In this document: positions 2-12,924 of the stretch, piece by piece
Position numbering within the stretch: position 1 is the stretch's first letter
Layout of the letters: the number at the start of each line of letters is the position of its first letter
Assembly: GCA_048940925.1 (NCBI GenBank)
Contig: JBHLOC010000074.1
Coordinates: 1-12,924, forward strand
Direction of reading: 5' to 3'
DNA from: Promethearchaeota archaeon
Lineage (GTDB): Archaea > Asgardarchaeota > Lokiarchaeia > Sigyniarchaeales > SOKP01
Length of the DNA stretch: 12,924 nucleotides
Notes under the pieces: generated by a model
Seen by the model: the letters and a program-made list of their open reading frames with translations, nothing else
What the model was told of the DNA's origin: nothing
Database searches by the model: none
Position numbers and translations under genes: made by a program

Positions 2-1201
2 ATGAAAGAAGTAATCAATGTATTTTTTAATTTTATGTTATCAATTAATTTTATTATTCTACTCCTCTTTTTCATATTTTTATATAACATATTAATTTAT
101 TTAATTAGAGATAGGATTTATATCGAAAATTTTAACCAGCATAAAGATCCTGAAGTTGTAAATATATCAGATTTAAAAAAATTACCCCTTGTAAACATTA
201 TTATTCCTGCTTGGAAAGAGGGAAAAGTATTTGAGGATTGTCTATTATCTATTTCAAATTTAAGTTATCCCTACTTAAAGGTAATAATAAGCGCAGGAGG
301 TAATGATGATACAATTCAAATAGCTAATTCATTTAAAAAATTCAATAATTTTATTATTTTAGAACAGAAGCCTGGGGGAAAAATGAAGGCATTAAATGAT
401 TGTTTAAATTACGTATCAGAAGGCATTATTTATTCAATTGATGCAGATGTAATACTTAATGATGAAATTTTAATAAGAATGCTTTATCCCTTAATAAATG
501 AAAATCAATTTGTGACAGCAGGTAGTATTCGACCTTTAAAACTTCAAGAAAATATTGATATCGTTAAATATATAGTTATAAATCGCAATACACATTTTCG
601 AATTAAATTTTCAAGATTAGGAAGAGTTGAGATATCTGGACCGAATAGTTGTTTCAAATATGAAGTTATTAAAAAAATTGGCAATTTTTTCAATGATAAA
701 TTATTTCTTGCTTCAGATAGATTTAGAGGGCCTCTAATCTTCTCCAAAGGATTTAAAATATATTGGTTAACTGATTATCGAGGAAAAATTTTTACTTACT
801 TTCCTGACTCATTAAAAGAATATTTTTTGCAAGAATTTCGTTGGAGAATGAATTCATTAACAAATCCTTATTTGCAAAAAAAGATAAATATTTATATTAA
901 ATTCTCAATTTCTTTTCTAATTTCTTTGTATCTTTTAAGCTCTCCGTTCTTTATGTTTTTAAACATAAATTTAGCCTTAATAGGTCTTCTAATATTATTA
1001 AGCAAATATTTAAAGAAATTAAGAAAAACTATATTTTTCAAGAGAACAGTTAATAAAAAATATTATGAAAACTTTGGATTATTTTTTTTTTTTAAATTAG
1101 TAATTTATATATATATGGATGCGATAATAACTTTTTATTTAGGAATTAATTTGTTAATTACCCGAAACAAACATGGTAATATAAGGAAACAAAATATATA
1201 G
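2..1201 (+). CDS. Membrane-bound family 2 glycosyltransferase (cellulose/hyaluronan/PNAG synthase-like motif set)
   Basis: 399 aa. Hydrophobic N-terminal segment, IIIPAWKE, GGKMKALN, DAD (DxD), ISGPNSCF, a putative catalytic Asp in LASD, QEFRW (QxxRW), and further hydrophobic C-terminal segments. The ATG lies at the window edge, so the true start may be upstream. Confidence 0.85.
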   Translation: MKEVINVFFNFMLSINFIILLLFFIFLYNILIYLIRDRIYIENFNQHKDPEVVNISDLKKLPLVNIIIPAWKEGKVFEDCLLSISNLSYPYLKVIISAGGNDDTIQIANSFKKFNNFIILEQKPGGKMKALNDCLNYVSEGIIYSIDADVILNDEILIRMLYPLINENQFVTAGSIRPLKLQENIDIVKYIVINRNTHFRIKFSRLGRVEISGPNSCFKYEVIKKIGNFFNDKLFLASDRFRGPLIFSKGFKIYWLTDYRGKIFTYFPDSLKEYFLQEFRWRMNSLTNPYLQKKINIYIKFSISFLISLYLLSSPFFMFLNINLALIGLLILLSKYLKKLRKTIFFKRTVNKKYYENFGLFFFFKLVIYIYMDAIITFYLGINLLITRNKHGNIRKQNI

Positions 1202-1301
1202 AAATCTTTTTTAAAATAATTTGGTAAATTCCTCTTTCCAAGTTTAAGAATGACAATATTATTTTGATTATATCCAAATTAGATTTTTAAAATACAATAA
1301 C

Positions 1302-1319
1302 CATTTCTTTTAAGAAATG
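1302..1319. promoter_or_regulatory. 18-bp inverted repeat, possible operator
   Basis: CATTTCTT-TT-AAGAAATG: perfect 8-bp arms with a 2-nt spacer in the GT2-tagF intergenic region. Confidence 0.3.
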
Positions 1320-1419
1320 CATACCGTAGAAAATCATTATATTAAAAATTTTACCTCAAATTTTTCCTTTTGAACCTGAATATTCAATGAAATTAAAAGC
1401 ATTTTATAGTTATAGCTTT

Positions 1420-1433
1420 AGAAAATTATATAA
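1420..1433 (+). promoter_or_regulatory. Putative archaeal promoter (BRE + TATA box) for the TagF-like gene
   Basis: AGAAAA followed directly by TTATATAA (1426-1433), 25-32 nt upstream of ATG 1458, with no SD. Consistent with a leaderless transcript. The AT-rich background lowers specificity. Confidence 0.5.
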
Positions 1434-1457
1434 CAATTTGATTAATTTATGTAATTA

Positions 1458-2696
1458 ATGGAAATCATGAAAAGGGTTCTAAATAAAATCAATTATAATT
1501 ATTTTTTTCTTAAATTAGTTGAACTTTTTTCTGCGATATATAATAGGACTTTACGAAAAAATATCAATCAAAAACTCTTAATATTCGGGGGAGACCATTT
1601 TTCAGATAATAGCAAATATCTCTTTCTTTATTTAAATTCTTTTTCATCTTATAGAATTATATGGTTATCTAAATTCAAGGATGTGGTATATACTTTAAGA
1701 AAAGGAGGTTTTGAAGCATATAAAAGATTTTCTTTAAAGGCTTTTTTTTTATTATTGAAAGCAAAATATATTTTTATAACACATACTCTCACTGATATTC
1801 TACCCGTCAATTTAAATCCTTACACAAAATTAATATATCTCGCTCATGGGATTCCATTTAAAACTACTAATTTTGATGTAAAAAATTTCCAATCATTATT
1901 TCCAACCAAATTTCAACTGGAAATAATATTTAAGATGTTTAAAACAACAGAATATCACATTTCATGTTCAGACAATTTCCATGCTATTTTAAGTAATGCA
2001 TATAGAATATCAAAAAAGAGAGTGATATCAACGGGATATCCCAGAAATGATATACTTTTTATCAATGATAGACAATATATTTCTAAGATCTATGAAAAAA
2101 ATAAAATTCCTCGTTCAATTGAAAGAATTATATTATATGCTCCAACATTTAGGGAAGAAAAAGTTGCTAAATTTCCCTTGGATAGACAATTATTAAATAA
2201 GTTAAATAAGGTTCTTAAAGAATCTAAGTCAATACTTCTTTTAAAAGCTCACAAATTTGAACAAATAATTGATTTTAAAACCCTAGAGAATATAAAAATA
2301 GTCGATAAAAACCAAGATATAATGAATTTGTTATTGATATCTGATATATTGATCACTGACTATTCTTCCGTATTTCTTGACTATATTTTAACATTAAGAC
2401 CAATAATTTTTTTTGCATACGATCTTGAATCTTTTCGTAAGTTAAGAGGGTTTTATTATGGATATGAAAGTTTTATCCCTGGGCCATTAGTTAAGGATGG
2501 GATAGAATTGATTGAAAAAATTAAAACTATATCTATTTGGGCTCCAAAATATAAAGATCAATTAATTAAAGTAAAGAATTTTTCTCATAAATATCAAGAT
2601 GGTAATTCATGTTATAGAATTTGCAAATACCTGCATTTAAAATTGGATCCTGAAAAAATAAAATATCAAAAAAAATGGTATAATTTCGATATTTAA
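1458..2696 (+). CDS. CDP-glycerol/CDP-ribitol:polyol-phosphate transferase, TagB/TagF/TarK-L family
   Basis: 412 aa with the family motifs FSDNSKYLF, HGIPFK, TGYPRND, LYAPTFRE, LKAH and LITDYSSVFLDY. Both putative catalytic histidines are present. Confidence 0.92.
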   Translation: MEIMKRVLNKINYNYFFLKLVELFSAIYNRTLRKNINQKLLIFGGDHFSDNSKYLFLYLNSFSSYRIIWLSKFKDVVYTLRKGGFEAYKRFSLKAFFLLLKAKYIFITHTLTDILPVNLNPYTKLIYLAHGIPFKTTNFDVKNFQSLFPTKFQLEIIFKMFKTTEYHISCSDNFHAILSNAYRISKKRVISTGYPRNDILFINDRQYISKIYEKNKIPRSIERIILYAPTFREEKVAKFPLDRQLLNKLNKVLKESKSILLLKAHKFEQIIDFKTLENIKIVDKNQDIMNLLLISDILITDYSSVFLDYILTLRPIIFFAYDLESFRKLRGFYYGYESFIPGPLVKDGIELIEKIKTISIWAPKYKDQLIKVKNFSHKYQDGNSCYRICKYLHLKLDPEKIKYQKKWYNFDI

Positions 2697-2752
2697 ATGT
2701 ATTGTTAACAATTAATTATGATATTTCTCTTTAGATTAATTAGATTCTTAAA

Positions 2753-4135
2753 TTAATCAAAATACAATTCTTTATCATCTCTTCTAACATCAATTACACT
2801 TCCAGTTAAATTAGATAATAAAGTCTGTAGAGATACAAACGCTACTTGTTCTGGAGATAATAAAGTTTCAGGAGGTTCTTTACCGAAATGTTTAAACCTC
2901 ATTGGCGTAGCGGTTCTTTCTGGATTTATTGCATTTATTTTTATATTGTAAATTGCTAGTTCATCAGATAAAGCTTGAACTAAATTTACAATTGCTGCTT
3001 TTGATGAAGAGTATATTGAATATAGAGCTCTTCCTCTAGTATATGAACTTGAAGTAAATAATAGGATTCCTCCATTACTTTTCTTTAAATATTGTATACC
3101 AGCCTTACAAACAGCAATACTTCCAAAATAGTTTACTTTTATTTCATCAAAAATATCATCTAATAAATCTCTGTCTTCTAATTTTCCCATTCGTAAAATT
3201 CCGGCAGTATTTATAATATAATTAATTATACTTTCTTTATTGTAAGTTTCTGCCAATACCATTTTAATCTGTTCATAATTTGAGATATCTACACCCTTTG
3301 ATCTTGAAAAATTATAAACTTTCGCACCATATTTTTTTGCTATGTCTGATATTGCCTTTCCTATGCCTTTAGTTCCCCCAAAAATAACTATTACTTTTTG
3401 TTTTAATTTATGTAATGAAATTTCATCATAAATTTCAAAAGCATTTAATTGGAATAATTTATCAGCGAGAAAAACATCTTCTGAATATGTAATTTTAATA
3501 TTTTTTTGTTCTCCGTTGACAACATATATCTTCTCATGTAAGTATTCTAAAACTAATCCACAATCATCAGAAAAAGTATCTTTTTTATTATCCTCTAATG
3601 CTAGTTTATGAGCTTTTTTTATTGTTTGAAGCTTGAATCCTTGAGGGGTTTGCCCTCTCCATAAATATTTTCTATTTGGAATATTAGTAATTAATTTTTT
3701 ATTATTAATTTCGATAATAGTGTCCGATGAGGGAATGGCTACATCTACAGCATTAAAATCTCTTAAAGCTTCAATACATTCGTTTATTATTCTATTTGAA
3801 ATAAAGGGTCTTACTGCATCATGAATTAAAACTATAGCATCTTCATCTTCAATTGAATTTAAACCAATATAAGAACTTTCTTGACGAGTTTCTCCCCCAT
3901 TTAAAATTTTAATAACTTTTTTATAATTATTTTTAATTATAATTTCTTCCATCAAATCTTTATAATTTTGATGAATTACAATGATAAGATAATCAATTCT
4001 ATCATTTTTTTCAAAAATATCAATAGTATGTTCTAAAACAGTCTTACCCGCGATTTTAATAAATTGTTTAGCGAGATGATGTTTAATTCTTTCCCCAATC
4101 CCTCCAGCTAAGATTATTGTATATACTTTCAACAT
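2753..4135 (-). CDS. bcs1: Bifunctional ribulose-5-phosphate reductase / CDP-ribitol pyrophosphorylase (Bcs1/Acs1-like)
   Basis: 460 aa. N-terminal IspD/TarI domain (ILAGGIGER, KQF, GGETRQES, IHDAVRP, GQTPQGF, NIKIT) fused to an SDR domain (GGTKGIG, TSSSYTRGR, YSSSK, INPERTATPMR). The architecture and motifs match Haemophilus influenzae Bcs1/Acs1 as I recall them. Confidence 0.9.
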   Translation of the reverse strand: MLKVYTIILAGGIGERIKHHLAKQFIKIAGKTVLEHTIDIFEKNDRIDYLIIVIHQNYKDLMEEIIIKNNYKKVIKILNGGETRQESSYIGLNSIEDEDAIVLIHDAVRPFISNRIINECIEALRDFNAVDVAIPSSDTIIEINNKKLITNIPNRKYLWRGQTPQGFKLQTIKKAHKLALEDNKKDTFSDDCGLVLEYLHEKIYVVNGEQKNIKITYSEDVFLADKLFQLNAFEIYDEISLHKLKQKVIVIFGGTKGIGKAISDIAKKYGAKVYNFSRSKGVDISNYEQIKMVLAETYNKESIINYIINTAGILRMGKLEDRDLLDDIFDEIKVNYFGSIAVCKAGIQYLKKSNGGILLFTSSSYTRGRALYSIYSSSKAAIVNLVQALSDELAIYNIKINAINPERTATPMRFKHFGKEPPETLLSPEQVAFVSLQTLLSNLTGSVIDVRRDDKELYFD

Positions 4136-4250
4136 TCACTTTACTTTTAATTGATTTTTATTTATTTTAGATTTGTTATTTATATTTTTTTAAAGAATTA
4201 AATCTTTAAGTAATTTATTTAAAAACTAATTATTTAAAGATAGGATCAAT

Positions 4251-5420
4251 TTATGAAATCTTATCAATGAATTCTTTAAACATATTGATTTCGCTATCAA
4301 TAGAATATTTTTGAAGCGCATATTCTTTCGCTAAATTTTGAAGTACTTTTAATTGTCTCGGATTACTCGACCATAATTTATATAATTCATTAATTTTTTC
4401 TTTGAAATGTTTTACATTTAAATCCTTAAGAAAATAAGCAAATTTTTTTCCTTTTAAAATTTCTATTGATCCTACGGTTCTAGTACAAATTATTATTAAT
4501 CTTGCTGCTAGTGCTTCTATTATCACTCTTCCAAATGGTTCTTTACGAGAAGAGAATAAAAATATATCATTTCTTTTAAGAGTTTTTACTAAATCCTCAT
4601 GAGTTAAATATCCTAATGAACTAATAAAATTTGGAAACCTTTTTTCTAATCTTTCCACCTCTGGTTTTAAAGGTCCCACACCTATTATTTCAAAAAATAT
4701 TTTGAGATCCTTATTATCATTTAAGAATTCTTCGATTGCTTTTAGTAAAACGCCTACTCCTTTATGAATATCGTCGAGAAAGCCCAAATAGACGAACTTT
4801 AAGATATCACTTCTCTTTTTCTCTTCATCATTCTTATCAAACTTTTTTAATTCTAATCCTTCGATTAAGAATACTACTTTTTTCTTAGCAAAAAAATTTT
4901 CAAGATATTTTTTGGTATGAAGTGATATCGTATGATGATATAAATTTTTTTTAAAAAGAGAGAATAATAATATAGAAATTCGATATGTTAAATTATACAT
5001 TGATAATTTTTTTTCACTATGTAGTGGTTTATGATATCCAATAATGAATTTTTTTTGAGGATTTAATATATTAGTAAACATTAAAATCAGATTTATCTTA
5101 AAATTCCCAGCTGTTGTATAGATAATATCATTTTCTTTGACCTTTCTCATTATTTTTTTTATAGTTCCAGGATATGGAAAATTAAATTTTTTATTGAAAA
5201 GGTTAAGTTGAGCAAATTTTAATTGAGGATTTCTCTTTACTCCTCGCAATCTTTTTTCTATTTCTTCTTCCAGTAAAAACTTCTTATTAATTAATATATT
5301 CGTATCTATGAGAGTTACGTTATAATAACCACCTAATCCAGCAGCTAGTTCAATAAAAAAAACTTCTCCCCCTCGTCCGTTTTCTAACGCATTCTTAGAG
5401 AAAATTAAAATTTTTACCAT
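4251..5420 (-). CDS. Family 4 (GT-B, retaining) glycosyltransferase
   Basis: GRGGE near the N-terminus, HKGV, and the EX7E motif SRKEPFGRVIIEALA. Start placed at ATG 5420 (MVKILIFS, 389 aa) rather than TTG 5462. Confidence 0.88.
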   Translation of the reverse strand: MVKILIFSKNALENGRGGEVFFIELAAGLGGYYNVTLIDTNILINKKFLLEEEIEKRLRGVKRNPQLKFAQLNLFNKKFNFPYPGTIKKIMRKVKENDIIYTTAGNFKINLILMFTNILNPQKKFIIGYHKPLHSEKKLSMYNLTYRISILLFSLFKKNLYHHTISLHTKKYLENFFAKKKVVFLIEGLELKKFDKNDEEKKRSDILKFVYLGFLDDIHKGVGVLLKAIEEFLNDNKDLKIFFEIIGVGPLKPEVERLEKRFPNFISSLGYLTHEDLVKTLKRNDIFLFSSRKEPFGRVIIEALAARLIIICTRTVGSIEILKGKKFAYFLKDLNVKHFKEKINELYKLWSSNPRQLKVLQNLAKEYALQKYSIDSEINMFKEFIDKIS

Positions 5421-5776
5421 TTTCCTAAAAAGATGTATTTTGATATTATTTATTAAATTCAATTAATCTGTTTTTGTAATCTACCTTTAAAAAAATATAT
5501 AATTGATATTTAAGATAGTTTTCAAAATGATTAAAAATTGAAAAATTCATTGATTTTGAATTTCTTAAATAACTTCTAAATCGATCCTTTAAAACCAACA
5601 TTAAAATTTAAAATGTAAAGATTTTTATTATTGAAATAAATAACCAAAACTTAAAAATCTTAAAATTTTCATGCCCATATCCGAAAAAACCTGAAAATTG
5701 AAAGATTTATTAATATTTTGTGAAAAAAATAATAATTAAGTTAAAAATCAATCTAAAATTTCTTTTTATAGATATT

Positions 5777-6928
5777 ATGAATGATTTTATACCTATAGAA
5801 AAAGTATTAGAAGAAAATATTAGAGTTAAAGAACTAGTAAGTCAAGATTTCATAATAAAACCTGAAAATATTGACACTTATTTAAAAGAATTTGAAAATC
5901 GAACTAGCACTTTACCAAATAAAGATTATTGGAGAGAAAAAAGGATTCTTATAACTGGAATTAGTGGTTTTGCGGGAAGTCATTTGGCTGAACAACTATT
6001 AGATTTAGGATGTGAAGTACATGGAACCATTCGAAGGCATTCAGTACCTATGCATGAAAATATTGAACATTTGAGAGGGAAAATATATTTACATGAAGCA
6101 GATATTACGAGTGCGGAACGGATACTTGAGATATTTGAAAAAATCCAACCTAATGCTATTTTTCATTTAGCAGCAGAATCTTTTGTTCCGACTTCTTTTC
6201 GAGAACCTGTGAGGGTGAGTAATAATAATATTGTAGGAACAATTAAAATATTTGAAGCAGCGCGTAGATTTGATGATGACCTAGAAAGTGTTCATGTTGC
6301 CTGCAGTAGTGAACAATATGGATTAGTGGACCCAAAAGAAGTTCCCGTTGTAGAAGATTTAAAAAAAAATCCTTTTAGACCAAGAAGTATTTATGGCATA
6401 TCTAAGGTTGCAACGGAACAGATTGCTTGGTTATATCACAATTCCTATGGAGTTCCAAGCATAATCACTCGAGGATTTAATCATGAAGGACCTAGGCGAG
6501 GAATCCAATTTGTAACTAGCGTAATCCATCGCCAAGTTGTTGAAATCTTAAAGGGAAAAAGAGATAAAATTGTAATTGGAAATCCCAATTCAATTCGAGA
6601 TTTCACTCATGTAAAAGATACTGTTAATGCTTATATCTTGGTAAGCGAACAGAGAAAATATAATGAACCTTATAATGTATGTTCAGGTAAAGGGATCTCA
6701 ATTGCAGATTATGTTGAAGTAGTAAAAAAGGTATTCAATATCTCGAATCCAGTATATATAGATCCAAAACGATTACGTCCAAGTGAAGTTCCTTTACTAA
6801 TTGGTATGAATAATAAAATTGTAAATGATACAGGATGGTTACCTACGAAATCTATAATTGATATAATAAAAGATGGTGTAGAATATTTTAAAATGCATCC
6901 AGAACAATTAGGTATTGAAGCTCATTAA
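5777..6928 (+). CDS. gmd: GDP-mannose 4,6-dehydratase / GDP-6-deoxy-4-keto-hexose reductase (GMD/RMD family extended SDR)
   Basis: ITGISGFAGSHL, HLAAESFVPTSF, SSEQYG, PRSIYGISK (YxxxK), FNHEGPRRG..FVT, RPSEVPLLIG. Start placed at ATG 5777 (383 aa) rather than GTG 5720. Confidence 0.78.
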   Translation: MNDFIPIEKVLEENIRVKELVSQDFIIKPENIDTYLKEFENRTSTLPNKDYWREKRILITGISGFAGSHLAEQLLDLGCEVHGTIRRHSVPMHENIEHLRGKIYLHEADITSAERILEIFEKIQPNAIFHLAAESFVPTSFREPVRVSNNNIVGTIKIFEAARRFDDDLESVHVACSSEQYGLVDPKEVPVVEDLKKNPFRPRSIYGISKVATEQIAWLYHNSYGVPSIITRGFNHEGPRRGIQFVTSVIHRQVVEILKGKRDKIVIGNPNSIRDFTHVKDTVNAYILVSEQRKYNEPYNVCSGKGISIADYVEVVKKVFNISNPVYIDPKRLRPSEVPLLIGMNNKIVNDTGWLPTKSIIDIIKDGVEYFKMHPEQLGIEAH

Positions 6929-7026
6929 TTGAGAAAAATGAAAAATCTATTATTTTTTGATTAGTTAAGTCCTTCTATTTAATTTTACTGTAAAACTTAT
7001 TTAATTATTTTCACTTATATAAGTTA

Positions 7027-8505
7027 ATGAATAAGTCTCAAACAATTAAAGCAGTTTTCTTAATAACTATAGATGCATTAAGGGCAGATCATTTAAGATC
7101 TTATGGATATCATCGAAATACGGCACCAAATTTAGAAAGATTTGCTGAAAAAGGTAAAACTTTTTTGAATGCAATAACAAATGGACCAGAATCACCAACT
7201 GCATTTTCTGCTATATTTACTTCAATCCTGCCATTCCTCGATGGAGGCTATAGCCCACTACCTCCCCAAAAGATTACATTCCCTCAGTTAATAAAAGAAA
7301 CTGGAATTTTTACATATAGTATTCATAGTAACCCCAATCTTGGACGTTTCTTTAATTATGATCGTGGATTTGAAGTTTTCTTAGATGGAGAAAGATATAA
7401 AAGAGAGCCAAATATCGATAAGAATTTAGGAATTAAACAATTACTTAGTTTTTATGTTAAAAAAATTTTGGATTATAAATCACTCTCTGAAAAATTAATG
7501 TATAGATTAAAGGGGTTTAATAGAATAAAGGCTTGGTTAAGGAATAAAATTCCTCTTCTTACAGATATTCTATTACCTTTCACACCAATAGCTTATAATG
7601 CACCCTATGTTTCAACTAAAGTTATATCCCTTTTAAAGAAAATAAAAACACCTTTCTTTGTATGGGCCCATTTTATGGATGCTCATAGCCCATATAATCC
7701 TCCTACGAAAAATGTATTAAACTTTAGAAAAAAAGATTTTTCGATTTCAGAGAGGGATTTTTTAGTTAATAAAACTCGTTCACAGACTCATAATTCTAAA
7801 ATTTCTAAAGACATTATTGAAGATTTAATGATATTATATGATAGTGAAATTAATTATATTGACGAAAATCTAGCAAAACTTTTGAATTATATAACTAGTC
7901 ATTTTAAAGAAAATGTTCTAATAATTATTACTGCTGATCATGGGGAAAGTTTTTATGAGCATGGCGTATTTGAACACCAAGGCAGTATTTTTGAAGAACT
8001 TTTAAGAGTTCCTTTTTTTATGATAGAAATTGGGAGAATAAATCAAATTAAAATTATTAAAGATCCTGTTCAATTAATTGATATCGCTCCAACTATTCTG
8101 GATTATTATGGTTTAGAAATACCTGATAATTTTCAAGGTAGGAGTCTTTTACCTATTCTGCAGGGTAAACAATTAGAAAATGTAGATATTATATTTTCAG
8201 AATGCTATCAGAAAAATGGATTTATGAAGCGAAATCATAATGAAGGATTTATATTGCTCGCGCTAAGAAAAGAAGGCTGGAAATATATTTATGATGAAGA
8301 AAGTGAACAAGAATACCTTTTCGATCTAAAAAATGACCCTTTTGAGAAACAAAATCTAGTTAATAGCAATATGCAGAAATTAAACGAATTTCAGGAAATT
8401 AGAGATAGACATATTCAAGAAAGTATTTCATCTACTCAAGAAAAATCAAAAATAATGAAAGCAATTAATCTTATAGGTTTTAACGAATTGAAAAAAGAAG
8501 AATGA
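7027..8505 (+). CDS. Sulfatase-like hydrolase/transferase (alkaline phosphatase superfamily), non-FGly type
   Basis: 492 aa. TIDALRADHL, HFMDAHSPY, TADHGE, FEHQG, VQLIDIAPTIL, QGRSL, LFDLKNDPFEKQNL. The nucleophile region is GPESPTAFSAIFTS rather than C/SxPxR. No evident signal peptide. Confidence 0.85.
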   Translation: MNKSQTIKAVFLITIDALRADHLRSYGYHRNTAPNLERFAEKGKTFLNAITNGPESPTAFSAIFTSILPFLDGGYSPLPPQKITFPQLIKETGIFTYSIHSNPNLGRFFNYDRGFEVFLDGERYKREPNIDKNLGIKQLLSFYVKKILDYKSLSEKLMYRLKGFNRIKAWLRNKIPLLTDILLPFTPIAYNAPYVSTKVISLLKKIKTPFFVWAHFMDAHSPYNPPTKNVLNFRKKDFSISERDFLVNKTRSQTHNSKISKDIIEDLMILYDSEINYIDENLAKLLNYITSHFKENVLIIITADHGESFYEHGVFEHQGSIFEELLRVPFFMIEIGRINQIKIIKDPVQLIDIAPTILDYYGLEIPDNFQGRSLLPILQGKQLENVDIIFSECYQKNGFMKRNHNEGFILLALRKEGWKYIYDEESEQEYLFDLKNDPFEKQNLVNSNMQKLNEFQEIRDRHIQESISSTQEKSKIMKAINLIGFNELKKEE

Positions 8506-8541
8506 ATATTTTTAATAATAAATAAGATTATGACAAGGCCT

Positions 8542-9261
8542 TTATTTTATATTTAAGACTTTTTTTTGAATTTTTATTAATTCAAAGATACCCTTTTCTC
8601 CTAAATCAATTATTTCATAAATTTTTTTTTTATTAAACGCAGCTCCTTCGGCAGTACCCTGAATTTCAATAATCTCTGAATATTCATTCATTACGAGATT
8701 GAAATCAACATCCACTTTTGAATCCTCAGCATAATTCAAATCAAGTGAGATTTCACTATCTTTTATACCTACTGAAATTGCGGCAACAACTTTGTATTCT
8801 GGAAATTCATAAATTAATTGTTGATCATACATATAATTAATTGCATCAAAAACTGCAATAAATGCCCCGGTAATTGATGCACATCTAGTACCGCCATCTG
8901 CTTGTATTACATCACAGTCGATCCTTATTGTATATTCCCCGAGCTTTTCATAATTAAACGCAGCTCGCATAGATCGTCCAATTAAACGTTGAATTTCCAT
9001 AGATCTTCCCCGATAGGTTTCTCTTTGATTTCTTGTTTGTGTTGCTCTAGGAAGCATTGAATATTCTGCTGTTATCCATCCTGTTCCTGTATCTAATAAA
9101 AATCTTGGTACCGATTCCATCACTGACGCAGTTATAATGATTTTCGTGTGTCCTTGAGTTATTAATACAGATCCTTCAGGATATTTAAGATAATTTCGTT
9201 TAATTGTGGTTTTTCTTATCTCATCATTTTTGCGACCATCAAACCTTATTTTCTGACTCAT
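8542..9261 (-). CDS. rph: Ribonuclease PH (bacterial type)
   Basis: 239 aa. RFDGR, EGSVL, GWITAEYSMLPRAT, EIQRLIGRS, DCDVIQADGGTRCASITGA, DLNYAEDS, IEIQGTAEG. Confidence 0.95.
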   Translation of the reverse strand: MSQKIRFDGRKNDEIRKTTIKRNYLKYPEGSVLITQGHTKIIITASVMESVPRFLLDTGTGWITAEYSMLPRATQTRNQRETYRGRSMEIQRLIGRSMRAAFNYEKLGEYTIRIDCDVIQADGGTRCASITGAFIAVFDAINYMYDQQLIYEFPEYKVVAAISVGIKDSEISLDLNYAEDSKVDVDFNLVMNEYSEIIEIQGTAEGAAFNKKKIYEIIDLGEKGIFELIKIQKKVLNIK

Positions 9262-9275
9262 CGAAAGTAAACCAT

Positions 9276-9333
9276 TTTTTACTAAAAAAAGTATATAAGT
9301 ATATTTTTTGTCAAGTAAAAACGTTACTAAAAA
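9276..9333. repeat. Cluster of short direct and inverted repeats upstream of rph
   Basis: TTACTAAAAA at 9279-9288 and 9324-9333; tandem AAGTATAT x2 at 9289-9304; inverted pair TTTTTACT (9276-9283) / AGTAAAAA (9314-9321). Confidence 0.35.
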
Positions 9334-9347
9334 TGACTTAAATTCTG

Positions 9348-10451
9348 CTATTTAAAAATAGGATAAGATCCTAATAGTTTATACCATATCACAATCTCAT
9401 TCATTTCATTTAATACTTCTTTTATTTTAGTATCTTCACTGTTACCTTCAAAATCCATTAGAAATATATATTCCCATCGACCTTTTCTCCGTGGTCGAGA
9501 TTCAATTTTCATTAAATTAATACCTGCGTCAGCAAAAATTTTGAGAACTCGGTATAAAGCTCCTGGAACATGCTTAGTGACAAAAACTATAGATGTTTTA
9601 ACTTTAGGTGCTTTTAGTTTATTCTCTTTTTTAGAAATTATTAAAAACCGTGTGTAATTTGAAGGATTGTCTTCAATCTTAGAATTAAGAACTTTTAAAT
9701 TATATCTTTTGCTCGCGAATTCAGTACCAATGGCTGCATATGATTTATCATTTAATTCGTTTACTCTATGAACAGCTTCAGCTGTTGAATTAACATTAAT
9801 TACATTAACATTAGGTAAATATTTTTTAAGCCAAGATCTCGTCTGAGCAAAAGCTTGAGGATGAGAAATAATATTTTTAATCATGGATAAATCAGATTTT
9901 TCTAGAGAAATTAAATTTTGAATAATTCTCAACTCAACTTCCCCATATATTGTGAGATTTTTTTCAATTAGTAAGTCTAGAGTTTCTCTTACAGTACCTT
10001 GAAGGCTATTTTCAATTGGAATAACTCCAAATTCAATAATATCTTTTTCTATACTTTCAAAAATCTCTGAAGTACTATTAAATGTTTTGAATTCTGATCC
10101 AGCTTTTGGAAAATATTCTAGAGCTGCTTGATGGGTAAATGTTCCTTCTGGTCCAAGATACCCCACTTTATTAATATCTCCTTGAATCAATTTGCTAGCA
10201 CTCATAATCTCTTTCCAAATTGCATCAATACTCCCGTTTTTAAAAACTGTTGCTTTATTTTTTAGTCTTTCAATAATCTCTTTTTCTCTTTGTGACTGTG
10301 ATACTTTTAAATTTAATTTTTGTTTTAAATTACCAATATCTATTACTAATTTTCCCCGTTTGTTTAAGAGATCTATAATTGAATCATCAATTTTATCGAT
10401 TTTGTCCCTTAAAATTCTTAGATCTTTCTCTAGGTTGTTGTTTTCACTCAT
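9348..10451 (-). CDS. pheA: Chorismate mutase / prephenate dehydratase (P-protein: AroQ + PDT + ACT)
   Basis: LRDKIDKIDDSIIDLLNKR (AroQ), YLGPEGTFT, PIENS, SHPQAFAQ, NYTRF, PGAL, KIESRP, LLGSYP. Start placed at ATG 10451 (MSENN, 367 aa). Confidence 0.95.
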   Translation of the reverse strand: MSENNNLEKDLRILRDKIDKIDDSIIDLLNKRGKLVIDIGNLKQKLNLKVSQSQREKEIIERLKNKATVFKNGSIDAIWKEIMSASKLIQGDINKVGYLGPEGTFTHQAALEYFPKAGSEFKTFNSTSEIFESIEKDIIEFGVIPIENSLQGTVRETLDLLIEKNLTIYGEVELRIIQNLISLEKSDLSMIKNIISHPQAFAQTRSWLKKYLPNVNVINVNSTAEAVHRVNELNDKSYAAIGTEFASKRYNLKVLNSKIEDNPSNYTRFLIISKKENKLKAPKVKTSIVFVTKHVPGALYRVLKIFADAGINLMKIESRPRRKGRWEYIFLMDFEGNSEDTKIKEVLNEMNEIVIWYKLLGSYPIFK

Positions 10452-10482
10452 TTTAAAAATTGTAGTGCTTTTAGTATAAAAA

Positions 10483-10497
10483 TAATAAAATTTTTCG
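10483..10497 (-). promoter_or_regulatory. Putative archaeal promoter (BRE + TATA) for pheA
   Basis: Minus strand CGAAAAA-TTTTATTA, with the TATA element 32-39 nt upstream of ATG 10451. An alternative TTTATA lies at 10480-10475. Confidence 0.4.
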
Positions 10498-10501
10498 TTA
10501 A

Positions 10502-12178
10502 TCAAAAAAGTTGTTCAATATTTAATTCAAATGCTGCAACAGGAAATTCTAGCTTAAAATTCACTAAAACTTCTGGATGTATTTCACCAATTTCTCCGAG
10601 GGAAGAATCATTCAAATAAATTTCCCCATATCGACCTTCTATATAGCTCTGATTTTTAGCAGGTCTAACTTCATAATTATCGTAAATCCCAAGTGAGGTC
10701 ATTATGAAGTCTAAAGTGGACTTTATTTCCGTATAATCTGCATCTTCATGATAAGAAACAGCAGATAAATGAACTTCACTTTTAGCTCCAGTCTCCTCTT
10801 TTTTTGATAGTAATATTACATCTCCCACCTCAAAAATTCTAATAGGTTTTTCTTCAGATCTATTTAACAGTAATGTGTCCATTAACTTTGGTAGAATTCT
10901 CGTTCTAGTTGTATTATACTCTTTAGAGACGGGATTTGCAATTTTTACAATTTTCCTCTTTTCAAACTCTTGTTTCATGTAATTAAATTGTTTTTCTGAA
11001 CTTGTTAAAATAAAATTAAGAACTTCTAAGTATCCTGCTCCAATCATAATTTTTCTTATTCTATTTGAGAAATCCTGCAGTGGATGAAATTCACCAATTC
11101 CACCTTCACGAATTGTTAGTGGTAAATTGAAGTACCCATACCCTATTGCGCATTCTTCGGTAAAATCAGTAGGATGCATAATATCTCCCCTGTAAGCAGG
11201 TACCCAAATATCTAAATAACCTTTCTTTTTAGACTCTTCAGCATTCATTCTAACTTTATTAAAGCATTTTATCATTTCTGAAATTTGTAAATTCAATCCA
11301 ATGACATCATTAATATAGTTGCTATTAACCTCCCATCTTTTAGGATTCAAATTAGGTGTAATAATTTCTTTGCCTCGTTCATAATTTACATTAACACTTT
11401 CAAGTTTTGCTCCCATATCTGCTAATGTCGTAGATAAAATATTTAACGCTAAATTTACTGCATTAAAGTCGGTGCCGGTTAAGTCTAAGAATAAATTCTT
11501 AGTATCATCAGTAACTGTAGTTAATTCTCCATTTATTATAGGAGGAAATGAAAGAACTTCATTCTTACTATCAAAAATTATTGGGTATACCTCCTTTCCT
11601 TCTAAAATATGAGCATATTCAATTCCCTTTTCATGAAGTAATAAAATTTCCTCTAAATTCATTGGATATCCATCACCATGTAAAGGTACAAAACTAACAG
11701 AATCTGGTTTCACTGCTGTATATCTATAAGGTGGTACAATATTATCTAAATCATGAACACCTATTGCTACTTTCTTCCTATTTCTTCCCACTGCCCAATG
11801 TAAATGTTCTTGAATATTCATCAAAGTTGCTACTTCATCCTCATCTAAATCAATGTCTCGAATTATTCCACATACAATATAAGGTCTAACCTTTTTAACC
11901 ATTGGATCAACGTTTAATGTAATATCTCCTGGCGTAATTTCGTATGAGGGGAGTCCCATTTCAATTTCGTAATATCCTCTAAGAGCTCTAGCAATGCCCT
12001 CTGGGCTAGAAAAATCAGGTCTATTTGGATTATATTCTACCTTAATTTTTTGATCTTCTTCATTGATATCTTCCAAATCTAAACTTATCCACTGTAAATC
12101 ATATTCCAAATCTTTAATATTCAACTTCTTTCCAACTAATCTTTCCAATCTTTCTATTTTTAATTCAATTGTAGGCAT
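10502..12178 (-). CDS. pheT: Phenylalanine--tRNA ligase beta subunit, archaeal/eukaryotic type
   Basis: 558 aa from MPTIEL. VEYNPNRPD, QEHLH..GRNRKKVAIGVHDLD, SFPPIING, YRGDIMHPTDFTEE..IGYGY, GEIHPEVL. No bacterial B2 OB insert or B8 anticodon-binding domain. Confidence 0.96.
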   Translation of the reverse strand: MPTIELKIERLERLVGKKLNIKDLEYDLQWISLDLEDINEEDQKIKVEYNPNRPDFSSPEGIARALRGYYEIEMGLPSYEITPGDITLNVDPMVKKVRPYIVCGIIRDIDLDEDEVATLMNIQEHLHWAVGRNRKKVAIGVHDLDNIVPPYRYTAVKPDSVSFVPLHGDGYPMNLEEILLLHEKGIEYAHILEGKEVYPIIFDSKNEVLSFPPIINGELTTVTDDTKNLFLDLTGTDFNAVNLALNILSTTLADMGAKLESVNVNYERGKEIITPNLNPKRWEVNSNYINDVIGLNLQISEMIKCFNKVRMNAEESKKKGYLDIWVPAYRGDIMHPTDFTEECAIGYGYFNLPLTIREGGIGEFHPLQDFSNRIRKIMIGAGYLEVLNFILTSSEKQFNYMKQEFEKRKIVKIANPVSKEYNTTRTRILPKLMDTLLLNRSEEKPIRIFEVGDVILLSKKEETGAKSEVHLSAVSYHEDADYTEIKSTLDFIMTSLGIYDNYEVRPAKNQSYIEGRYGEIYLNDSSLGEIGEIHPEVLVNFKLEFPVAAFELNIEQLF

Positions 12179-12184
12179 ATTTTT

Positions 12185-12191
12185 CCACCTC
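12185..12191 (-). promoter_or_regulatory. Shine-Dalgarno site of pheT overlapping the pheS stop codon
   Basis: Minus strand AAATGAGGTGGAAAAATATG: GAGGTGG lies 6 nt before ATG 12178. Confidence 0.7.
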
Positions 12192-12924
12192 ATTTAAGAT
12201 ATGACTGCTGTCTTAACCACTTAATTGGATTGATGTAAAAATCACGCATATCTTCTCGCCCATAATAAGGCATCGCAATCCTTTCTAAACCTAGGCCCCA
12301 TGCTAAAACACGTGTAGGCTCTTTAATTCCCCATGGATACGTAACTTCTGGTCTAAATATTCCCGACCCCCCCATTTCTAACCATTCACCTAATTTATCG
12401 TAATAAACTGCAACTTCCATACTAGGTTCAGTATAAGGAAAAAATCCTGGTCTGGTGACAATCTTTTTAAAACCTATTTTTCGATAAAATTCTGATAATA
12501 AACCAATTAAATCACACAAAGTTGCATTGTCATCAATAACGATACCCTCGACCTGAGTGAATTCTGCTAAGTGAGATTTATCAACTCTTTCATTTCGAAA
12601 AACTCTATCTACACAAAAAACCTTTACTGGCACTTTATCATCCTCCCTATAAAATTGTGCCAATCTACGCATTGTTGTAGAAGTTGTGTGTGTCCTCAAT
12701 ACTATCTTTTTTGCAGTTTCAAGATCCCATTTATAACCCCAACCAATCGAACCTGAATCTCCTCCACTTTCATGGGTCTCCTGAACAGCTAAAACTCTGT
12801 CTCTTTCTGGTAATTTTGCAATTTTTGGATTATCTAAATAGAAAGTATCTTGCATTTCACGAGCTGGATGATCTTGTGGTTGAAATAAAGCATCAAAACA
12901 ATAAAAAGCACTTTCAACAATAGG
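12190..12924 (-). CDS. pheS: Phenylalanine--tRNA ligase alpha subunit, archaeal/eukaryotic type (5'-truncated by the window edge)
   Basis: The frame stays open beyond the listed ATG to the edge: PIVESAFYCFDALFQPQDHPAREMQDTF. Also LRTHTT, VFRNE..DKSHLAEFTQVEG, FFPYTEPS, GSGIFRPE, AWGLGLERIAM. Confidence 0.97.
   Translation of the reverse strand, partial: PIVESAFYCFDALFQPQDHPAREMQDTFYLDNPKIAKLPERDRVLAVQETHESGGDSGSIGWGYKWDLETAKKIVLRTHTTSTTMRRLAQFYREDDKVPVKVFCVDRVFRNERVDKSHLAEFTQVEGIVIDDNATLCDLIGLLSEFYRKIGFKKIVTRPGFFPYTEPSMEVAVYYDKLGEWLEMGGSGIFRPEVTYPWGIKEPTRVLAWGLGLERIAMPYYGREDMRDFYINPIKWLRQQSYLK

Follow-up and report, generated by a model that had tools for sequence, protein, structure and literature searches.

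A candidate ribitol-phosphate capping module in a Lokiarchaeon as a rare form of a donor-swappable glycan system

Based on analyses of a 12,924-nucleotide contig from a Promethearchaeota archaeon (assembly GCA_048940925.1, contig JBHLOC010000074.1; hereafter the window, which is the entire contig C16 of genome G000, 4.8 Mb and 29.6% GC) and comparisons to related loci, we tentatively propose that a Lokiarchaeon caps a lipid-linked surface glycan with single units of ribitol phosphate, using an exchangeable donor cassette together with a native transferase, rather than building a teichoic-acid polymer. Two adjacent genes are central here, one for a predicted single-module TagF-family phosphotransferase and one for a Bcs1/Acs1-type fusion of an IspD/TarI cytidylyltransferase with a classical short-chain dehydrogenase/reductase (SDR), predicted to produce cytidine diphosphate (CDP)-ribitol. 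Systems of this kind with swappable donors are widespread in Lokiarchaeia, and the ribitol version is rare among them: in relatives, phosphonate, inositol-phosphate and glycerol-phosphate genes stand beside the same kind of transferase, which points to an interchangeable glycan-capping system rather than to teichoic acid.

The transferase has an intact open reading frame (ORF) of 412 amino acids (aa) and spans a full PF04464 (Glyphos_transf) domain over residues 28-393 (E 8e-73; 245.9 bits against a cut-off of 22.1; profile positions 3-366 of 367), with Staphylococcus epidermidis TagF as the best PDB match (E 4e-39). Among its motifs, H130-G-I-P133, GYPRND193, YAPTFR227, KAH265 and TDYSS300, the histidines H130 and H265 align with the catalytic histidines H444 and H584 of TagF. 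The AlphaFold model (pLDDT 92.8) matches TagF (3l7i) with Z 35.2 and a root-mean-square deviation of 2.8 over 365 aligned residues, followed by TarL (Z 34.1), Cps3D (Z 32.7) and Bcs3 (Z 32.3), the next fold reaching only Z 17.9; no transmembrane segment was found in the protein. The full domain, both histidines and the GT-B matches bear out the original prediction of an intact, single-module TagF-family enzyme. In the tree, a well-supported branch groups the transferase with Lokiarchaeal proteins, whereas two Bcs1-linked enzymes from outside the Asgard archaea (L167 and L168) fall elsewhere. L158 and L159 are short metagenomic contigs whose transferases join that of the window in one clade within the radiation of Lokiarchaeal family f1 (100/100); the window transferase is native to Lokiarchaeia. 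Separately, internally duplicated two-domain TagF proteins (~815-826 aa), in which the pocket motifs differ between the halves, are encoded at L127:5909-8353, L130:3184 and L133:3214.

The fusion, an intact ORF of 460 aa, is convergent with the transferase gene across a gap of 56 bp, as the original prediction had described the two. It matches IspD over residues 4-226 (E 5.5e-54) and adh_short over residues 282-414 (E 2.4e-28), and its best PDB matches are TarI-type ribitol-5-phosphate cytidylyltransferases. An alignment of nine homologues shows the cytidylyltransferase residues R16, K23, D106, R109 and K214 as well as the SDR residues G253-G259, R278, S362, Y375 and K379 to be invariant. Bacterial homologues at ~60% identity are automatically labelled 'bcs' or 'ribitol-5-phosphate 2-dehydrogenase (NADP+)/D-ribitol-5-phosphate cytidylyltransferase'; the Bcs1-type assignment reflects domain architecture and these automatic labels, and with both domains and their residues kept, the cytidylyltransferase-reductase fusion claimed earlier is correctly called. 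In comparisons within the IspD family, Listeria TarI scores 128 bits and human ISPD 66 bits, the latter over the N-domain only. The fusion was probably imported from bacteria; its tree is a quick one with a midpoint root.

Among 301 sampled Asgard genomes, 161 of them Lokiarchaeia, the PF04464 family occurs in 40 (39 of the 161 Lokiarchaeia) and the full fusion in two, G000 and G112, G000 being the only Lokiarchaeon of the two. Fusion and transferase are adjacent on three separate contigs and in two arrangements, convergent in the window and co-directional in L158 and L159, where the fusion lies directly upstream of the transferase with gaps of 23 and 32 bp, respectively. The L158 fusion is 77% identical to that of the window, the L158 and L159 transferases are ~60% identical to the window enzyme, and tree and synteny suggest an archaeal origin of both contigs. 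Two metagenome scans returned no further Lokiarchaeal copies within the limits of a pattern scan, the transferase query yielding no relatives and the fusion alignment only distant SDR and IspD proteins. Related arrangements were seen elsewhere. The G112 fusion (L137:1256-2635, 53% identical) adjoins a flippase, a GT4 and a UDP-N-acetylglucosamine 2-epimerase, and a Parabacteroides fusion from a plasmid search adjoins LicD and Wzy, not TagF. In Priestia aryabhattai (L166:3875-9350), flagellin, a GT2-TPR-TagF fusion and a Bcs1-type fusion lie in a row, a candidate for ribitol-phosphate modification of flagellin. In two family-f7 Asgard genomes (L138:9228-11146 and L139:5619-7590), TagF is convergent with a stand-alone TarI-like cytidylyltransferase, with no adjacent dehydrogenase.

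Donor cassettes are swapped beside the same kind of transferase. The phosphonate cassette found next to Asgard TagF genes comprises phosphoenolpyruvate (PEP) mutase, phosphonopyruvate decarboxylase (Ppd), an iron-containing alcohol dehydrogenase or a class V aminotransferase, and a nucleoside triphosphate (NTP) transferase; other cassettes consist of myo-inositol-1-phosphate synthase (MIPS) with an IPCT-like protein, glycerol-3-phosphate dehydrogenase with an NTP transferase, TagD, a TarI-like protein, or an NTP transferase-HAD fusion. PEP mutase is matched in 36 of the 161 Lokiarchaeia genomes, which would make these archaea likely phosphonate producers in sediments, and its presence follows that of the transferase (23 of 39 TagF-positive against 13 of 122 TagF-negative genomes, kin not being independent). 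None was found in G000, which fits the fusion having taken over the role of the phosphonate cassette. Phosphotransferases of the teichoic-acid type, served by interchangeable cassettes for the donor, are thus encoded in about a quarter of Lokiarchaeia genomes. We note that an NTP transferase paired with a GlpT/PgtP/UhpC-like permease, which may import or recycle a phospho-donor, occurs near TagF or phosphonate genes in L170:5310-7563, L125, L134, L183, L189 and L191.

In our proposal, the pair belongs to a variable island of surface-glycan genes, and capping would operate as follows. RpiA would supply ribulose-5-phosphate, which the SDR domain of the fusion would reduce with NADPH and to which the IspD domain would add CMP from CTP, yielding CDP-ribitol, as family membership and intact motifs suggest. 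The TagF-family enzyme, cytoplasmic and peripheral to the membrane, would then transfer ribitol-5-phosphate via His130 and His265 with release of CMP. The acceptor would be a glycan hydroxyl, the glycan being assembled by the adjacent GT2 and GT4 enzymes on a polyprenyl or dolichol carrier, with one unit per acceptor or repeat. In the least certain step, the glycan would be flipped and either passed on to protein by AglB or displayed as a surface polysaccharide. G000 encodes RpiA, AglB/STT3, a Wzx-type flippase and two initiating transferases of PF00953, the family of TagO, possibly of AglH/Alg7 type, along with one PF04464 gene and one full IspD-family gene. With this single PF04464 gene and no match to the LicD family in G000, no other user of CDP-ribitol was found there; TagD had no match in the genome either. 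Across Lokiarchaeia, this type of transferase would be fed by cassettes for 2-hydroxyethylphosphonate, aminoethylphosphonate, inositol phosphate, glycerol phosphate or ribitol phosphate and would serve as a device for surface diversification.

Several findings weigh against this proposal. According to the work on Bcs3 of Haemophilus influenzae type b (Hib), the position three residues after the catalytic histidine is Gly in ribitol-phosphate and Pro in glycerol-phosphate transferases (PMC10299916), and the window enzyme has Pro133 where the ribitol-phosphate transferases TarL and CroT (CroT G99) have Gly. Pro is present in all three Lokiarchaeal Bcs1-linked enzymes (window, L158 and L159), and Gly in TarL and in the non-Asgard Bcs1-linked L167 and L168, the comparison covering L167, L168 and PDB entries. 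Furthermore, orthologues 88-90% identical to the L158 and L159 transferases lie behind phosphonate operons, and adjacency alone therefore does not fix the donor; in L192, the corresponding slot is taken by such an orthologue, and the genes after it encode a GT4 (91% identical) and an SDR (95% identical). An IPCT-like/MIPS pair flanking a 468-aa gene on G000 contig C68 (~72000-75360) would provide an alternative source of CDP-inositol, and in G112, which encodes the fusion, the search for PF04464 returned no gene. Finally, protein-linked and polysaccharide acceptors are not told apart by the present evidence. Of the earlier claim that the pair puts ribitol phosphate on an archaeal acceptor, the pairing is strengthened by its recurrence in L158 and L159, while ribitol phosphate as the donor is not established, given Pro133 and the sister orthologues at phosphonate operons.

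The pocket residue, the phosphonate-linked sister enzymes, the inositol genes, the lone G112 fusion and the convergent orientation in the window all lend weight to a serious, though not a likely, alternative, namely that the two genes are uncoupled, with the transferase drawing on a different donor (CDP-glycerol, CDP-inositol made by the C68 genes or a phosphonate that has since been lost) and CDP-ribitol going to some other enzyme or not being used at all. Against this stand the co-directional pairs in L158 and L159, the lack of any LicD or second PF04464 match in G000, and a fusion that is intact and shares 77% identity with its L158 counterpart; moreover, inositol-linked TagF proteins fall into other clades and mostly carry Ser or Gln at the position of Pro133.

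Alternatively, the product of the fusion could be another CDP-alditol, such as CDP-arabitol formed from xylulose-5-phosphate, which the transferase would then add to the glycan. We regard this as improbable: another polyol could suit the non-canonical Pro pocket, and architecture and automatic labels leave room for it, but the ~60%-identical homologues carry ribitol-type labels, the best solved matches are ribitol-5-phosphate cytidylyltransferases and RpiA is present.

A teichoic acid polymer is unlikely, since neither the TagA/TarA linkage-unit transferase (PF03808) nor the LCP anchoring ligase (PF03816) is matched in G000 (each is matched in 7 of 14 control genomes), the single PF04464 gene leaves no primase-polymerase pair there, and the NCBIfam equivalog cut-offs are missed by far (TarF 177 bits against 550, TarL 107 against 1000, TarB 59 against 500). 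The label 'teichoic-acid-like' in the original prediction accordingly overstates the case. Fold and catalytic residues do match those of the polymerases TagF and TarL, and ABC-2 or Wzm-Wzt-like genes occur in the islands of several relatives, so a single enzyme that both primes and polymerizes poly(ribitol phosphate) on a lipid or glycan anchor, the stronger of two options raised in the original prediction, might be imagined. Yet the transferase lacks the extra N-terminal part of TarL (412 versus 562 aa), the ABC-2 permease query from the relatives' islands (Wzm), used to look for a TagG/TagH-type exporter, has no match in G000, with generic ABC ATPase matches only, and near-identical orthologues of the L158 and L159 enzymes are paired with a pathway to 2-hydroxyethylphosphonate, a group that serves as a glycan decoration in the systems known. 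A true homopolymer is thus quite improbable. Compared to the wall teichoic acid systems, in which TagF, TarF, TagB and TarL share the PF04464 fold, its motifs and CDP-polyol chemistry with the window enzymes, the TarI and TarJ functions are here fused instead of separate.

The contig is non-chimeric and comes from an archaeon, a member of the Lokiarchaeia. PheT exceeds the archaeal model TIGR00471 (581 bits against a cut-off of 283) and shares 86% identity with PheT of Promethearchaeia, with the majority of the best 80 loci titled as Asgard or uncultured archaea. In sequencing run X1, from which the assembly may have been made, each junction between genes from 9 to 11681 falls within a single contig (depth 21-28), and contigs break only inside ORFs; one of these contigs spans 9-7137, others at a depth of 21-29 cover the remainder, and transferase and fusion are also joined on a contig from a second sample (2328-2830). 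GC content at third codon positions is 0.13-0.20 across all window genes. As evidence apart from the assembly, pheS-pheT-pheA-rph is followed immediately in relatives by a TagF gene accompanied by these SDR and GT4 genes, and the island slot after this block recurs in at least ten relatives. The notion of a bacterial contig or an assembly chimera, which might draw on the bacterial nearest named homologues of the fusion and on the estimated 8.4% contamination of G000 (100% complete by markers), is effectively refuted by PheT, by the nesting of the transferase among Lokiarchaeal family-f1 proteins, by the shared island, by the run contigs across the junctions and by the even codon composition.

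The enzymes are of known kinds, and what is new is a variant of CDP-polyol/TagF chemistry in a Lokiarchaeon; teichoic-like genes in an archaeon are not. A close parallel is Hib, in which Bcs1 is likewise an IspD-SDR fusion serving as CDP-ribitol source and the CroT part of Bcs3 a TagF-like GT-B domain with two catalytic histidines (Z 32.3; PMC10299916). Unlike Bcs3, the window transferase is a stand-alone protein of 412 aa in an archaeal host, with Pro for CroT Gly99 and without ribosyltransferase or phosphatase domains, and no group 2 capsule export genes were found in the window. For Methanobrevibacter ruminantium M1, the teichoic acid genes given by Leahy et al. (2010) include an IspD-like and alcohol dehydrogenase set (TarI/TarJ-like), TagD and members of the TagF family (PMC2812497, Table S1). 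The original statement that no characterized archaeal example is known consequently holds for biochemistry only, the genes having been predicted already in that uncharacterized methanogen. There, however, the cell wall is of pseudomurein and several GT2-TagF fusions have Firmicute affinity, whereas the present host belongs to a lineage in which no wall is known, and it combines a Bcs1-type fusion with TagF from a single native clade. In the literature searched, with most subscription journals outside the search, no description of TagF or Bcs1 in Asgard archaea was found.

Single phospho-units on glycans have been described elsewhere. Clostridioides difficile CD0244 has been proposed to put one phospho-threonine on flagellin N-acetylglucosamine (PMC10714395); the CD0241-CD0244 set resembles the window in joining a cytidylyltransferase to a single TagF-like enzyme thought by its authors to cap a protein-linked sugar with one phospho-unit, but it involves a CDP-threonine donor and a bacterial O-glycan, and is probably distant in sequence. 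Apart from this comparison, L161:9166-12746 encodes an FkbM methyltransferase, TagF and an NTP transferase-HAD fusion, the enzyme set of CD0241-CD0244. The Thermococcus kodakarensis N-glycan carries one myo-inositol phosphate (PMC11407970), i.e. a polyol phosphate on an archaeal N-glycan as proposed here, with inositol in place of ribitol.

A further parallel, if our capping proposal holds, lies in animals. There, CRPPA/ISPD provides CDP-ribitol, and fukutin and FKRP, which are LicD-type transferases, place ribitol phosphate on alpha-dystroglycan; no LicD-type gene was found in G000. An ancestral link is unsupported, as human ISPD matches the N-domain only, no LicD was found in G000, and the rarity of the full fusion, present in only two of 301 Asgard genomes, makes convergence likelier than ancestry. 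Being rare and probably of bacterial acquisition, the ribitol version has little bearing on the origin of eukaryotic ribitol glycans.

Asgard surface chemistry is almost unknown, and the literature searched yielded one glycoproteomic study, in which several residues are unassigned. There, Nakagawa et al. (2024) reported Promethearchaeum syntrophicum N-glycans of 801.30 and 909.30 Da, the latter with an unknown residue of 311.08 Da in place of the terminal N-acetylhexosamine (HexNAc; PMC11284389). Strain MK-D1 (G312) carries an operon (L188:6564-10958) of a cytidylyltransferase-PEP mutase and a phosphonopyruvate decarboxylase, both over their NCBIfam cut-offs, an iron-containing alcohol dehydrogenase, whose best model is the phosphonate type but below cut-off, and an NTP transferase; such a gene set is the usual route to CMP-2-hydroxyethylphosphonate (PMC6697681). 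The computed mass of HexNAc plus C2H5O3P is 311.077 Da (glycan 909.299), and that of the isethionyl form 311.068. The 311.08-Da residue hence matches HexNAc with 2-hydroxyethylphosphonate, although masses given to two decimals also permit different formulas, as well as isomers (e.g. ethyl phosphate). The match makes a phospho-capped N-glycan in this lineage plausible. The TagF-family protein of MK-D1 (QEE16063.1, L169:15470-16747) belongs to a distant clade (30% identity) and a separate polysaccharide cluster, and a relative with a 6.0-Mb single-contig genome has the phosphonate operon and no clear PF04464 gene, so this TagF need not be the transferase for the residue. No paper linking P. syntrophicum glycans with phosphonates was found within the same limits of the literature search.

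Predicted glycan mass shifts are +214.024 for ribitol phosphate, +107.998 for hydroxyethylphosphonate, +242.019 for inositol phosphate and +154.003 for glycerol phosphate, and that for hydroxyethylphosphonate matches the public P. syntrophicum data. A doubtful but far-reaching extension would be that Lokiarchaeia cap protein N-glycans by a native TagF with swappable donors, that G000 places ribitol phosphate on glycoproteins, reaching alpha-dystroglycan chemistry by a separate route, and that the 311.08-Da residue is HexNAc-2-hydroxyethylphosphonate.

The window holds ten genes, namely those for a GT2, the TagF-like transferase, the fusion, a GT4, a GDP-mannose-dehydratase-like SDR and a sulfatase-like protein as well as rph, pheA, pheT and a partial pheS (Table 1).

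Table 1 Features of the 12,924-nucleotide window.
Feature	Position	Strand	Remarks
GT2 glycosyltransferase	2..1201	+	Hydrophobic segments at N- and C-terminus; family recurs in relatives' islands; candidate acceptor-glycan builder
Predicted single-module TagF-family (PF04464, GT-B) CMP/CDP-donor phosphotransferase	1458..2696	+	His130 and His265 intact; Pro133 in donor pocket
Bcs1/Acs1-type fusion, predicted ribulose-5-phosphate to CDP-ribitol synthase	2753..4135	-	IspD/TarI part ~1-230, classical SDR part ~243-450
GT4 glycosyltransferase	4251..5462	-	115 bp upstream of the fusion, co-directional
Extended SDR, GDP-mannose 4,6-dehydratase-like nucleotide-sugar enzyme	5720..6928	+	Conserved member of the island in relatives
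Soluble sulfatase/alkaline-phosphatase-superfamily protein	7027..8505	+	Inside the glycan island
Core block pheS (partial)-pheT-pheA-rph	8542..12924	-	Anchors the island; fixes the host as Promethearchaeia

The extended SDR is 79-82% identical to the L159 and L192 copies, and the sulfatase-superfamily protein may possibly act in glycan editing or turnover. A second sulfatase-like family (~500 aa) has members beside the phosphonate operons in L190 and L191 and, in MK-D1, close to the TagF cluster (L170); G000 encodes a copy with 63% identity (C87:37416-38915). Within the core block, 8542-9261 encodes a bacterial-type RNase PH (TIGR01966, 324 bits against a cut-off of 141.5) and not the exosome protein Rrp41, and it stands beside pheA in relatives, too. 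Records titled Nanopelagicaceae, Hodarchaeota, Hermodarchaeota, Odinarchaeota and Thorarchaeota (L093, L043, L045, L049 and L095) carry PheT 74-84% identical to the Lokiarchaeal protein, and their titles or bins may be wrong. Finally, ARAGORN calls a tRNA-Sec at C3:50049-50141 of G000, consistent with a Lokiarchaeal host.

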